Shown in pieces: positions 16,270-21,136 of a stretch of DNA of 64,000 nucleotides; position 1 is the first letter of the stretch; each line of letters opens with the position of its first letter. Under the pieces are notes generated by a model. The model was not told the DNA's origin and made no database searches. It saw only the letters and a program-made list of their open reading frames with translations. This DNA comes from Thermoplasmatota archaeon. GTDB lineage: Archaea > Thermoplasmatota > E2 > DHVEG-1. The DNA lies in contig JAWABU010000003.1 of the NCBI GenBank assembly GCA_038884455.1, positions 1,969 to 65,968 of the forward strand. The letters run 5' to 3'. Position numbers and translations under genes: made by a program.

Positions 16270-16464
16270 TTATTTCCTGGATGAACGAAGAAAATTGTTG
16301 ATGCTTCGATCGTAGGTTCGTTCAGCAGTATCAGTAAAATAACATGCAGGGAGTTCATATCGGCTCCTATGATACGCAAGGCAGATACAGCACATTCCTT
16401 TTTTTTCACAGGGATATGAACAGTTACAGTAACGTGCTCTGTTTTCCTCTTTTTTGCATTCCAT
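16270..16464 (-). CDS. Small cysteine-rich hypothetical protein of 64 aa, with 8 Cys in the first 41 residues: [43 protein letters not shown]...
   Basis: The ORF sits between ligA and giant gene 2. GGTGA lies 7 nt upstream of its ATG. That ATG and RBS lie inside the last 41 nt of ligA, so the ORF could be spurious. It is Cys-dense, which suggests a metal-binding or knotted peptide. Confidence 0.25.
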
Positions 16465-18487
16465 GACTCTTCACCTTTCTCTGAATAAGTTCTGTAAACT
16501 CATCTTCATTTAAAATGGTAATCCTCAGTTTTTTTGCCTTGTCATATTTTGATCCTGGATCTGAACCAACAACAACATAATCGACATCTTTTCCAACTGA
16601 TGAAACAACAATGCCGCCAAGCTGTTTTACCGCTTCTGAGGCTTGAGACCGAGATAGCGACATCAGGCCACCGGTAAAGACAAACCGTTTTCCCTGCAAC
16701 GGCAGGTTGGTAGCAGATCGTTCTTCTTTCGTTTGAATACCGAATTCTTTCAGCTTACGGATGAGTTCCTGATTTTCATCATTTGCAAAAAAGGTGATGA
16801 TTGCTTCAGCTGTTTTCTCACCAATGCCAAATATCGAACTGAGTTCTTCTTTGGTTGCTTGTGCAAATGCATCGAGAGAATGATACGTATTTGCAAGTAT
16901 TTGTGCAGCGTATTTACCAACATGGCGAATTCCAAGACCGTAAATCAATCTCGATAAACTTTGTGTTTTACTTCGTTCAATTGAATCGAGGAGATTTTGT
17001 GCTGCTTTATCTTTAAATCCGTCAAGTTTCATGATATCTTCTTTTGTCAAACGGTACAGATCGGCAATTGAATCGACAAGTCCCTTTTCGATAAGTTTAT
17101 CTATCGTTGATTCTCCGAGATGTTCAATGTCCATCGCATCTCGAGATGCATAATATTTAATTCGCCATTTCAAACGAGCAGGACACATTTTATTTGGACA
17201 TCGGACTGCGACTTCGTCTTCTGAGTGAACAACAGGAGATCCGCATACAGGGCATGTCTTAGGGACCCCACGACGTTTTTCAGAGCCAGTACGTTTTTCA
17301 GGGATGCTTTTCACAACTTTTGGGATTACATCACCACTCCGTTCAACAAGGACGGTATCCCCGATTCTGATATCTTTTCGTTTCAACTCATCGAAATTAT
17401 GGAGCGTTGCTCGTGAAACTACAACGCCGCCGACGCTTACTGGCTCAAGAATTGCAACTGGAGTGAGTGTACCGGTGCGTCCAACTTGAATTGCTATGTC
17501 AAGAAGTTTTGTTGTTGCTTGTTTTGCTGAGAATTTAAACGCAATGGCCCATCGTGGATGTTTTATTGTTTCACCGAGTACTTGTTGATGGGCAAATGAA
17601 TTTACTTTTAGAACCACGCCATCAATTTCATAATTGAGAGTATCTCGTTTTTTTTCGAGATCCTGACAGTATCGTATTGCTTCGTCGATCGTTTGAACTT
17701 TTTCAACTAGCGGATTGACGCGAAATCCTGCCTCTTTTAAGAGTTGTAATGCGTGTTCTTGAGTATCAACAGGGCAGTTTGCTGAGACAAGATAATACAT
17801 AAAATTATCAAGAGGTCTTTTGGCAACAATCCGCGGGTCAAGTTGGCGAAGTGATCCAGCTGCTGCATTTCGAGGGTTTGCAAATAGGGGTTCACCTCTT
17901 TTTTCTAACTCTTTATTCATTCGGATAAAACCATCAAGCGGCATATATACTTCACCGCGAACTTCAACATCGACCAGAACATCTCCTTGAAGTCGAAGTG
18001 GAATACTTTTGATAGTTTTGAGATTTAAGGTAATATCGTCTCCCTGTTTTCCATCACCTCGTGTTGCACCTTGAACAAACATTTTGTTTTTGTAGTGTAA
18101 TGCAACGCTCAGTCCGTCGATTTTTGGTTCAGCGATATATTCAACAGTTGGGACAATCTTTTTAACTCGTTGATCAAACTCTCTGAGCTCGTCGTAGCTA
18201 TACGCATTATCGAGTGATATCATAGGAATAGTATGCGTAACTGACGAAAACCCTTTGAGTGGTTCTCCTCCAACGCGTTGTGTCGGTGAATCTGGAGTAA
18301 TAAATTCTGGATGTTCTTGTTCTAGTTTTTCTAATTTTTTTAGTAATACATCAAACTCGTAATCAGAAATAACTGGATTGTTTTCCACATAATATTTATA
18401 GTTATGATAGTTGATTTCTTCTCGAAGTTTTTCGATTTGTTTTTTTATATCGTTTTTTTTCATAGCTTTTCGTTCATGGTATCTCAA
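16424..18487 (-). CDS. ligA: NAD+-dependent DNA ligase (LigA), 687 aa.
   Basis: It has the adenylation motif [13 protein letters not shown] (KxDG). It also has OB, Zn-finger (CPVCGSPV...CPNKMCPAR), HhH ([21 protein letters not shown]) and C-terminal BRCT-like regions. The length and domain order are typical of LigA. It overlaps the polX stop by 14 nt. Confidence 0.9.
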
Positions 18488-20207
18488 GTATTTTTTTTAT
18501 TTTTTTGAATGAATAGGCATTGAGAATATCTTTTTTTTCAAGCCAACCACGGCGTGCTTGAGCTACTCCAAATTGCATGAAATCGAGATGGTTAACTGCA
18601 TGTGCATCTGTGCCAATCACGAATCGAATTCCATATTCTCTTGCTTGCTTGATATGTACATCATTAAGATCAAGTCGATCAGGAAATGCATTGATTTCTA
18701 AGAACATATCTGTTCTTTTTGCGGTGTCAAATATTTTTTCAACGTCAACTTCGAAAGGTTCTCGTTTCCCAATCATTCTTCCTGTTGGATGGGCAAGAAA
18801 ATCAGCAAATCCTGTTTCCATTCCAGAGATGATCCGTTGGGTCATTTCTTTTTTTGTCATTTTAAAGCGGGAATGGATACCGATATACACAAAATCAAAT
18901 TCAGAGAGGATCTTTTTTGAATAATCCAAAGTTCCATCAGGAAGTATATCGCATTCGGTACCGTAAAGAATCATAAAATCTGAAAAAGTCTCATTTAGTT
19001 TTCGTATTTCTGACAATTTTTTTTTGAGTTTTTCTTCAGATAGACCGTTTGCTATTTTCAACGACTGGGAATGATCTGTACTTCCTAAAAATTGATACCC
19101 TTTCGTCTGAGCGTATTGTGCGAGTGTCGTCAGATCATCAAATCCATCACTCCACCTTGAATGAACATGAAAATCACCTTGCATGTCATCATACCGTACA
19201 AGAACAGGTAATTGGTGTTTTTTAGCCGCATCAACTTCACCGCGATTTTCACGAAGCTCTGGCTCAATATATGACAATTCGAGCTTCTGATAAATATCCT
19301 GCTCGTTTTTTCCAGCAACATACTTTTGATTTTTTTTGGTAAACAGTCCATACTCACTAAGTTTGTAGCCTTTCCTACTTGCAAGACTTCGAACAGCAAC
19401 ATTATGTTCTTTTGATCCGGTAAAATACTGGAGAGCAGCACCATAACTCTTATCGGGTACAACCCGGATATCAACCTGCAGCAGATCATCTAATTGCACG
19501 CTTGTTTTGGTTACACCTTTCATCAGTACTTTCTTGACTCGGGGAAACTGGATGAAATACTCCATGATCTGTTCAGGATGTTTTGAGCTTACCAGAATAT
19601 CAAGGTCACCGATAGTTTCCTTCATTCGGCGGACGCTTCCTGCAAGACTGACTGCATCGATTTTTGTATTTCGCTTGAGATAGTCGAGATATTCCATGCC
19701 ATCAACATAGGCAACATTGAGCAGTACTCGGCCGGTTGTTTGTTCTCTCAAGCTGATACCTCGCAGTATATTTCGTTCGGTGATTTCACCAAACCCCTCT
19801 AAGTGTCTTAGTGTTCCATGTTCACACGCTTTCTTTAAATCAGCAATGGTTGTAATTCCAAGTTTTGTATAGAGTGCTGCAACTTTCTTAGGACCAAGAC
19901 CAGGGATCTCTAACAATTCAAGGAGTCCTTCAGGTATTTCTTTTTTTAATTTCTCAAGATATCGAATATTTCCTGTTGTGAGAAGTTCGAGTATTTTTTT
20001 TGCCAATGCTTCGCCGACTCCAGGGATGTTTGTCAGTCGTTTTTCTTCGGCGATCTTTTCGATATTTTCATCGAGCCCTTCGATAGTTTGTGCAGCAATT
20101 CTGTATGCTCGAATTTTAAAAAAATTTTCACCTTTGATATCAAGAAGATTTGCAATTGTATACAGTGTTTCCGCGACCATCTGGTTCTTCATAGTTTTTC
20201 TTCGCAT
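18474..20207 (-). CDS. polX: Family X DNA polymerase with a C-terminal PHP (3'-5' exonuclease/phosphoesterase) domain, 577 aa.
   Basis: HhH motifs are present ([20 protein letters not shown]). The nucleotidyltransferase motif reads [17 protein letters not shown]. The PHP domain reads [11 protein letters not shown]...[10 protein letters not shown]. Its 3' end overlaps the ligA start. Confidence 0.85.
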
Positions 20208-20866
20208 CCTTCAAGAAATATGATTACGGTAACGTCATCTCCATCGAGTAATCGTAATTTCTCGCGAAGGTTATCCTTAGAGATGAGTTCAAGAATATTT
20301 GAATAATGACTTCTTTTCGGTAGAATGATTGCTCCTGGTATATCGTTGATCATTGCATGAAAACATATACCCCCACCAAAGGTTCTGTTTTCTGTTTTAA
20401 ACTCATCAATAGTAATACCTTTGCAGTTTTTTAACAACCGAAGTTTATTACGCTCGACAGAATCAATTTCAACATTGAGTGTTCCAGGATAGGGCAAAAA
20501 CTGAAGTTTGTTTTGGAACTGAACTGCATATCCTTTTTGTTCTGTGTAATATTTTCCTTCACCAAGACCAGATACAACTTTACCTTTGAATACAATCTTA
20601 TTTGGTAGATCAAATATTTGTTTATACAATGCATACTCATCAGCTAAGATATCGGCACCGGCTTGGGTGATTTGTATCAATTGTTTTTTAATCCCAAACT
20701 CGCGCGAGATCATTCCTACTTTTTCTAATTCAAGAAGATATCGTGATGCTGTTTGTTGGCTTGCGTCTAATCGTGCTGCTAGTTCTTGTGAAGAGATCTC
20801 GACACGATTTCGCATAGCTCCAAGCAATCCGAGTTCTTTTAGCGTTTGAAGTAGGTATGGTTTCAT
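20189..20866 (-). CDS. rbkR: HTH transcriptional regulator fused to an archaeal CTP-dependent riboflavin kinase (RbkR-like), 225 aa.
   Basis: The N-terminal winged HTH region is ISSQELAARLDASQQTASRYLLELEKVGMI. The C-terminal MJ0056-type riboflavin kinase motifs are KGKVVSGLGEGKYYT, PYPGTLNVEI and GAIILPKRSHYSNILELI. It overlaps the polX start by 19 nt. Confidence 0.7.
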   Translation of the reverse strand: MKPYLLQTLKELGLLGAMRNRVEISSQELAARLDASQQTASRYLLELEKVGMISREFGIKKQLIQITQAGADILADEYALYKQIFDLPNKIVFKGKVVSGLGEGKYYTEQKGYAVQFQNKLQFLPYPGTLNVEIDSVERNKLRLLKNCKGITIDEFKTENRTFGGGICFHAMINDIPGAIILPKRSHYSNILELISKDNLREKLRLLDGDDVTVIIFLEGCEEKL

Positions 20867-20896
20867 AGCTTTCCTCCAATAAAATATTTTTTTTTG

Positions 20897-21136
20897 TTAT
20901 TTTCCCATTTTTTCTGCTAGTTTTTCTCCTTCGGTGGTAAACCAAATGGTATTTCCCTTCTGTTCAAGGATCCCTGCATTGATAAAATCAGAAATAATTT
21001 TCTCTGCAACAGATCGAATTATGCGCTGTTTTTTGATGATACGATTGATATTTTTTTCTCCAGAGGCAATTTCATAGAATATTGCACGTCGATGTTTATT
21101 TGAAAGTATAAATCCTTCATCCATAGGTATAACCAA
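20897..21136 (-). CDS. Small winged-helix DNA-binding protein of 79 aa (hypothetical regulator).
   Basis: A short basic ORF that heads the rbkR-polX-ligA operon. It has an HTH-like segment (NINRIIKKQRIIRSVAEKIISDFINAGIL). Confidence 0.45.
   Translation of the reverse strand: MVIPMDEGFILSNKHRRAIFYEIASGEKNINRIIKKQRIIRSVAEKIISDFINAGILEQKGNTIWFTTEGEKLAEKMGK

Follow-up and report, generated by a model that had tools for sequence, protein, structure and literature searches.

Operons in which the gene of an X-family DNA polymerase (PolX) stands next to that of a DNA ligase have been described before. In the survey of Prostova et al. (2022; PMC9226535), where co-directional genes within 300 bp were counted as a PolX-ligase operon, canonical PolX was found beside an ATP-dependent ligase in Methanomicrobia (22/22 genomes) and noncanonical PolX beside LigD in Alphaproteobacteria; in Bacilli and Clostridia polX was paired with zapA or mutS2, not with a ligase. 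That survey has no entry for Thermoplasmata, LigA or RbkR. It has also been documented that bacterial-type NAD+-dependent ligases occur in archaea, namely in Halobacteria (PMC3914693), in marine group II (MG-II), listed with an NAD+ ligase of bacterial origin but without an ATP ligase (Table 3 of PMC4153887), and in a 64-node cluster of uncultured Euryarchaeota (PMC7470946). Here we describe a locus in which rbkR, the gene of a riboflavin kinase with a DNA-binding domain, is followed by polX and by ligA, the gene of an NAD+-dependent ligase. It lies in a stretch of 64,000 nt (referred to as the window) from a Thermoplasmatota archaeon (assembly GCA_038884455.1, contig JAWABU010000003.1, positions 1,969 to 65,968).

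The locus resembles the PolX-ligase operons of PMC9226535 in that a PHP-bearing X-family polymerase adjoins a co-directional DNA ligase, with gap filling and sealing as the implied functions. It differs from them in that the ligase is the non-homologous, NAD+-dependent LigA and not an ATP-dependent Lig or LigD, and in that the pair stands behind rbkR and is mostly flanked by two small genes. Because of its NAD+-dependent partner we place the locus outside the described sets and regard it as a variant of them. A ligase paired with PolX is a known theme; what is new is that this ligase is NAD+-dependent, that rbkR is the constant leader and that two small accessory genes are present. The interpretation that we favour, with moderate confidence, is a vertically inherited, lineage-wide rbkR-polX-ligA operon of the Thermoprofundales (MBG-D, for marine benthic group D) and close Thermoplasmatota relatives, which carries a bacterial-type repair pair and is not a flavin switch. 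An earlier reading of the window (the original prediction), made without database searches, had pointed to the PolX-LigA module and to the occurrence of a bacterial-type LigA in an archaeon. The module holds at this locus and the ligase is of the bacterial type, but archaeal PolX-ligase operons had already been described with an ATP-dependent ligase, and NAD+ ligases of this kind were on record from the three archaeal groups named above.

The argument for a conserved operon rests mainly on the recurrence of its gene order. A metagenome scan with an RbkR alignment added 80 loci, and 85 RbkR loci were compared; the counts for each junction refer to the loci that extend far enough to show it. PolX follows rbkR in 74/74 loci, and LigA follows PolX, co-directionally and at a median distance of 4 nt, in 49/50. 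The gene of a small winged helix-turn-helix (wHTH) protein precedes rbkR in 74/74 loci, that of a small DUF6485 protein follows ligA in 37/37, and nog1 is divergently adjacent in 54/57. Taken in operon order, the median gaps at the four junctions across loci are 19, 11, 4 and 14 nt. The same gene order is seen with LigA relatives at approximately 70% identity. In the sole exception for LigA (L084:3960-5183) a 407-aa tyrosine-recombinase-like ORF (open reading frame), probably an integrated element, stands directly after polX. An order that recurs in approximately 85 independent loci is more than chance, and the adjacency and the short gap bear out the proposal of an operon-like unit with PolX and LigA as a compact pair.

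The whole cluster is also present in M9B2D (MUGD01000007.1), a named MBG-D/Thermoprofundales metagenome-assembled genome (MAG; PMC6461988), and it is for this reason that the clade was placed as Thermoprofundales. Two published genomic accounts of Thermoprofundales, one of them PMC6461988, do not mention the cluster. A distant locus on a 496-kb contig (L093:5527-11037), whose LigA is 61% identical, has nog1 divergent from rbkR-polX-ligA and 4-nt overlaps between the genes, and lacks both the small wHTH gene and the DUF6485 gene. Since both small genes are missing there, the core of the operon is the triad rbkR-polX-ligA.

In the window, the ORF listing and the Pfam/NCBIfam scans gave five co-directional minus-strand genes, encoding the small wHTH protein, RbkR, PolX, LigA and DUF6485 (Table 1). 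The original prediction had delimited a four-gene operon at 16424-21136; these co-directional ORFs are real, but DUF6485 was missed as the fifth gene. Its family calls for LigA, PolX, the RbkR-like protein (wHTH plus PF01982) and the small HTH protein all agree with the scans.

LigA scored 880 bits with NF005932 (cutoff 369) and 873 bits with TIGR00575 (cutoff 444). Six Pfam domains were found: Nlig-Ia, adenylation, OB, zinc finger, HhH and BRCT. In the adenylation domain (PF01653, 319 bits) the KIDG motif with K114 aligns to KVDG of the Thermus filiformis ligase, and the OB, C4 zinc finger, HhH and BRCT domains (PF03120, PF03119, PF12826 and PF00533) are above their cutoffs, so that the bacterial-type features named at the outset (KxDG, zinc finger, HhH, BRCT) were all recovered. 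Lack of the Ia region had been named as the observation that would speak against the ligase assignment. This objection falls away because the Ia domain is present (PF22745, 36.9 bits, cutoff 27), with YHNYKYY...ISDYEFD aligning to YHNYRYY...ISDAEYD in the Ia domain of the T. filiformis enzyme 1dgs. The best relatives of solved structure are 1dgs (569 bits) and the Escherichia coli enzyme 2owo. Judged by its sequence, LigA is a complete NAD+-dependent ligase.

PolX was recognized by NF006375 with 578 bits (cutoff 426) and has both the X-family and the PHP domains. It is collinear with the Thermus thermophilus enzyme ttPolX (PDB 3au2) over residues 1-565 (487 bits). The catalytic aspartate triad is kept (GDLD at 195-198 and VDIR at 240-243, aligned to the ttPolX motifs), and so are the PHP motifs when compared with 3au2: HVHS 342, TDHS 372, ECD 413, GIHS 438, AHP 467 and TDAH 528. 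The C-terminal PHP domain itself matched PF02811 with 34 bits (cutoff 26.4). Close counterparts are the bacterial PolX enzymes (T. thermophilus, Bacillus subtilis, Deinococcus radiodurans, Staphylococcus aureus): triad and PHP ligands of the protein are intact, and collinearity with ttPolX extends over 565 residues. It differs in its archaeal host and in having a ligase as a partner, where Bacilli and Clostridia have zapA or mutS2. A PolX with 45% identity from a bacterium of the candidate phyla radiation has no ligase neighbour.

The RbkR-like protein matched PF01982 with 142 bits and NF010762 with 254 bits, the latter slightly under the cutoff of 279. Its alignment with RbkR of Thermoplasma acidophilum (PDB 3cta/5trd) is full-length (residues 9-221, E 1.3e-51), which, together with the PF01982 match, confirms the proposed fusion of an HTH domain with a riboflavin kinase by comparison with a validated RbkR. 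The most conserved part of the protein is the wHTH; within the clade neither the recognition helix SQQTASR (SQQSASR in T. acidophilum) nor any of the kinase motifs GEG, PGTLN and RSHYS varies. The two-domain architecture is that of T. acidophilum RbkR (Ta1064; PMC5397151), the recognition helix is nearly identical and the kinase motifs are conserved. The difference lies in the setting, since rbkR here heads a DNA-repair operon and its promoter has no convincing copy of a published operator motif.

Of the two small proteins, the wHTH protein matched HTH_45 in 17/18 orthologues (best E 5e-7) and has a weak profile likeness to Sso10a (PDB 1r7j, E 0.0012). The idea that it is a duplicate of the DNA-binding domain of RbkR was dropped (hhalign probability 0.2%). 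DUF6485 was assigned by PF20095 with 25.3 bits (cutoff 24). Its invariant residues are C13, C15, C19, C25, C26, C28, H32 and C41, and the protein is possibly metal-binding. It is up to 73% identical to a protein of a Cloacimonetes bacterium; homologues occur in Cloacimonetes, Altiarchaeota and Thermosulfidibacter, and their contexts in the first two groups are unrelated to the operon. DUF6485 is an unusually well conserved small Cys-rich protein common to bacteria and archaea. An AlphaFold2 model (pLDDT 69) gave no fold match in the PDB.

The start codons were taken from homologues. The PolX start (MKNQ, ATG at 20192) is shared by homologues, by T. thermophilus PolX and by the NCBI annotation (P0121, 572 aa, 100% identical), and the LigA start (ATG at 18463) by homologues and by the NCBI protein P0001 (679 aa, 100% identical). 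With these starts the rbkR stop and the PolX ATG share a 4-nt ATGA overlap and a 10-nt gap separates the PolX stop from the LigA ATG. The overlaps of 19 and 14 nt reported previously were a product of choosing the longest-ORF starts. The wHTH gene most likely begins at ATG 21124 (MDEG..., 75 aa), judging from the starts of its relatives. At the other end of the operon, the DUF6485 start is overlapped for 41 nt by the 3' end of ligA, by way of a short C-terminal extension of LigA. Shine-Dalgarno-like motifs (GGAGG/GGGGA/GAGG) precede rbkR, polX and ligA, that of rbkR, GGAGG, lying 8 nt ahead of the ATG, and such a motif is all that was seen in the wHTH-rbkR spacer. No conserved internal TATA element was seen within the operon.

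Table 1. Coordinates of the operon genes and adjoining elements in the window
Feature	Description	Position	Strand	Basis or role
Gene 1	small wHTH protein of 75 aa (MDEGFILSNK...)	20897..21124	-	putative DNA-binding protein/regulator
Gene 2	RbkR-like, 225 aa, N-terminal wHTH and C-terminal CTP-dependent riboflavin kinase	20189..20866	-	PF01982, PDB 3cta/5trd
Gene 3	canonical bacterial/archaeal PolX, 572 aa, Pol beta-like core and PHP	18474..20192	-	NF006375
Gene 4	NAD+-dependent DNA ligase LigA, 679 aa, C-terminal tail ~14 aa	16424..18463	-	NF005932, TIGR00575
Gene 5	Cys-rich DUF6485 protein of 64 aa	16270..16464	-	PF20095
nog1	divergent neighbour, NOG1-family GTPase	21177..22148	+	Pfam NOG1_N, MMR_HSR1, NOG1
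nog1/wHTH intergenic region	52 nt	21125..21176	.	putative compact bidirectional archaeal promoter
T6 run	12 nt past the DUF6485 stop	16253..16258	-	candidate archaeal oligo-T terminator; sequence reading, presumed role

Relatives of LigA were collected by an exhaustive search of 1.8 billion representatives. The best one is the clade's own cluster (61% identity), after which identity drops to 53% and below, the nearest representatives from outside the clade being 50-53% identical. The two next-best representatives that could be placed lie in a bacterial context (GGDEF regulator, alanine racemase, HU, signal peptidase) with no PolX nearby. In this the locus agrees with the archaeal NAD+ ligases described earlier (Haloferax volcanii LigN, MG-II, uncultured Euryarchaeota), which are likewise full-length bacterial-type LigA proteins attributed to horizontal transfer; the nearest relatives found outside the clade are bacterial here too. 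It differs from them in the lineage, Thermoprofundales, and in the constant operon setting alongside PolX and RbkR, which is not described there (PMC3914693, PMC4153887, PMC7470946). The G+C content at third codon positions (GC3) is 0.305 for polX and 0.282 for ligA, within the range of native genes (0.27-0.31); any transfer must therefore be old.

Two loci, L030:12519-14549 and L064:7838-9871, have a second LigA lineage in the same operon slot. These two ligases share 75% identity between them, but only 47-50% with the usual LigA. In a neighbour-joining tree, a rough one based on Kimura distances and 40 replicates, the usual LigA (type 1) was monophyletic in 40/40 replicates and type 1 together with type 2 in 0/40, and type 2 grouped with a LigA encoded in a bacterial neighbourhood in which MutS2 and LysM are also found. 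The two loci thus look like cases of in-situ xenologous replacement. That the slot has been filled by another LigA lineage in these loci speaks for selection on the pairing of PolX with LigA.

The intergenic region between nog1 and the operon is approximately 51 nt long across loci and 52 nt in the window. In the minus-strand sequence we noted GAAAAGCTTTATGTG (21170-21156), a putative B recognition element (BRE)/TATA for the operon, TAAATTAAG (21148-21140), a putative TATA serving nog1 on the opposite strand, and ATATTGGT (21139-21132), close to the presumed operon transcription start site. The core of this putative promoter, TGAAAAgcTTTATGTGaTaccTnTAAATTAAGaTgTTGGTa, of roughly 40 nt, shows conservation of at least 90% at most of its positions among 44 non-redundant loci; for comparison, the major-allele frequency at third codon positions of the flanking genes is only 0.59. 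The L093 locus keeps this core although it has no wHTH gene, and rbkR stands there directly behind the promoter. The spacing between TATA and ATG fits two crossed archaeal BRE/TATA elements that would give short-leader transcripts in both directions.

In the favoured interpretation the operon would be read as one polycistronic mRNA from this compact conserved bidirectional promoter, which it would have in common with nog1, and each internal gene would have its own Shine-Dalgarno-like motif or would overlap with its neighbour for translation. By analogy with the characterized bacterial PolX enzymes, the PHP domain would clean 3' ends or cut apurinic/apyrimidinic (AP) sites, the Pol beta-like core would fill the short gap, and LigA would seal the nick with NAD+, so that the two enzymes would jointly finish single-strand-break and base-excision repair. 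A similar division of labour is found in the eukaryotic Pol beta-XRCC1-Lig3 system, where the short gap is filled by a polymerase of the X family and then closed by a ligase with a BRCT domain. The likeness is an analogy only: there is no XRCC1-like scaffold here, and the ligase belongs to another family. RbkR would serve as the riboflavin kinase and the riboflavin biosynthesis (rib) gene regulator of the lineage, and the simplest reason for its leading position would be a historical one, the foreign repair genes having come under a housekeeping promoter with presumably constitutive expression.

Several points weigh against this interpretation. RbkR is attached to PolX-LigA in all sampled loci, including the distant L093, and this linkage is stronger than one would expect from history by itself. 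Conservation of the promoter core exceeds the need of two TATA boxes, and the core could hide an unrecognized operator. According to PMC9226535, no archaeal PolX has been characterized biochemically. Finally, LigA may be mainly a replicative rather than a repair enzyme.

The last point leads to the alternative that comes closest, which we consider rather unlikely even though it partly overlaps with the repair-operon interpretation. It holds that LigA is the sole replicative ligase, the ATP-dependent one having been lost, and that nog1, rbkR and ligA are housekeeping genes with polX as a passenger or as a helper in Okazaki-fragment processing. The precedent of MG-II, listed with the NAD+ ligase and without an ATP ligase (PMC4153887), is in line with this, and so is the essential function shared by the NAD+ and ATP ligases of Haloferax (cited in PMC3914693). 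LigA is encoded at 49/50 loci; the deviating cases are replacements and not losses. No ATP-dependent ligase is encoded in the window, and a scan of 963 kb around this locus for ATP-ligase-like ORFs (motif I together with III or IV) was negative, but these 963 kb represent locus surroundings and not whole genomes, which makes them a weak test of absence. PolX, on the other hand, is as strictly linked as LigA, and this fits a functional pair better than a passenger.

Control of repair-gene expression by flavin status had been suggested in the original prediction. In its explicit form, RbkR, possibly together with the wHTH protein, would bind its own promoter and tune polX-ligA to flavin mononucleotide (FMN) or CTP. 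This is unlikely in our view. There are observations that suit it: autoregulation of RbkR is common, with rbkR-ribB units in 36 genomes (PMC5397151), the wHTH is the best conserved part of RbkR and its recognition helix matches that of the T. acidophilum protein, rbkR follows the promoter directly in L093, the promoter core is near-invariant, and rbkR is linked to the pair in every sampled locus. On the other side, published RbkR regulons comprise rib genes, riboflavin transporters and rbkR-ribB and contain no polymerase or ligase genes (PMC5397151). The operator reported for Thermoplasmata/Thaumarchaeota, TTAC-N10-GTAA, was found in 0/48 non-redundant operon promoters, and the consensus motifs of three other lineages (Rodionova et al. 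2017, PMC5397151) in 2/48, 0/48 and 0/48; this clade may use an operator of a different, unrecognized kind. Matches to TTAC-N10-GTAA with one mismatch occur in the window at chance level (27 observed versus 27.3 expected). In 863 kb of related loci there were 17 perfect copies versus approximately 28 expected, and none recurs at the operon. An inverted repeat in the promoter, ATACC-N16-GGTAT, was dropped as an operator candidate, as it is not kept in L011, L031 and L093. Rfam gave no riboswitch, its sole match in the window being tRNA-Gly, and neither the window nor the fetched related loci contain rib genes. Taking into account that the operator searches were negative both at the promoter and in related DNA, the flavin-switch idea is without positive support.

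Two side observations concern the operator motif. A perfect TTAC-N10-GTAA is located at L058:5963, inside an insertion of approximately 520 nt between rbkR and polX (L058:5565-6085, also L065:3800-4329) that has a possible 77-aa ORF. In the window, a gene for a major facilitator superfamily (MFS) transporter is divergent from a MobB-like gene (52988-54358), and a one-mismatch copy of the motif lies at 54341-54358, inside the mobB start; such copies are at chance level in the window, as given above. RbkR is known to control an MFS riboflavin transporter in Thermoplasmatales.

A combination of the two preceding alternatives is quite improbable. In it LigA would be the sole ligase, expressed only through the RbkR/wHTH-led operon, a hidden operator would couple replication and repair to CTP/FMN, and DUF6485 would be a metal-binding accessory of PolX-LigA. 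As for a fortuitous adjacency, or an assembly or binning artefact in which a bacterial fragment with separate transcription was joined to archaeal DNA, LigA and PolX are indeed of bacterial type and MAG contigs can be chimeric, but such an explanation can hardly be credited in view of the same order in approximately 85 independently assembled contigs from many samples with archaeal genes on both sides, the native GC3 and the gaps of 4-19 nt, which leave no room for promoters.

If the repair-operon interpretation holds, the operon defines a partner set in archaea, consisting of PolX, LigA, the small wHTH protein and DUF6485. The ATP-dependent ligase partner in Methanomicrobia, the NAD+ ligase here and the exchange of LigA within its slot point to a real partnership of PolX with whichever ligase the cell uses. 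Should LigA turn out to be the sole ligase, a cosmopolitan order of sediment archaea would rely on a bacterial ligase for its replication, which has also been proposed for MG-II. The strict rbkR linkage is a clean comparative-genomics signal.

The chromosome around the operon is archaeal, as the original prediction had it: aIF5B, the A-type ATPase operon, an Mrp/Mbh-like complex, isoleucyl-tRNA synthetase, TruD, L10e, an exosome subunit and NOG1 are encoded alongside. The same prediction had placed an Endo IV-like AP endonuclease near the module. The ORF in question (24746-25627) is an AP_endonuc_2 TIM barrel (PF01261), for which only membership of the superfamily is supported: its scores with NF002196 (64.8, cutoff 333) and TIGR00587 (58.8, cutoff 129.65) led us to reject it as Endo IV, and the best Endo IV match in the PDB (E 2.6e-7) covers part of the protein. 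It belongs to a separate plus-strand unit and is syntenic in one related locus only (L003), so that what remains is a weak Endo IV relative that is not conserved beside the operon. The plus-strand unit (24450-26190) consists of UPF0147, the TIM-barrel protein and a SIS-domain protein (hexulose-isomerase-like), the genes of the last two overlapping by 4 nt. With 80% identity to its L003 copy, the TIM-barrel protein is more conserved than the repair enzymes.

Between nog1 and this unit lie the gene of an EarA-like regulator, tRNA-Gly(GCC) and a 404-aa ORF without a Pfam match (22431-23095 and 23153-24367); many related loci likewise have EarA in synteny upstream of nog1. Two giant minus-strand ORFs (305-16001; 2532 and 2684 aa) follow directly downstream of the operon. 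The L003 homologue of the second one gave faint or weak matches to FG-GAP and a match to Laminin_G_3, so that the two ORFs probably encode surface or secreted proteins. Further along the window, the Mrp/Mbh-like membrane complex (28918-37181), composed of Nuo-like 20, 30 and 49 kDa and Mnh subunits, adjoins a complete A-type ATP synthase operon (37767-46189), a set that matches the 'ancient respiratory system' described for Thermoprofundales.

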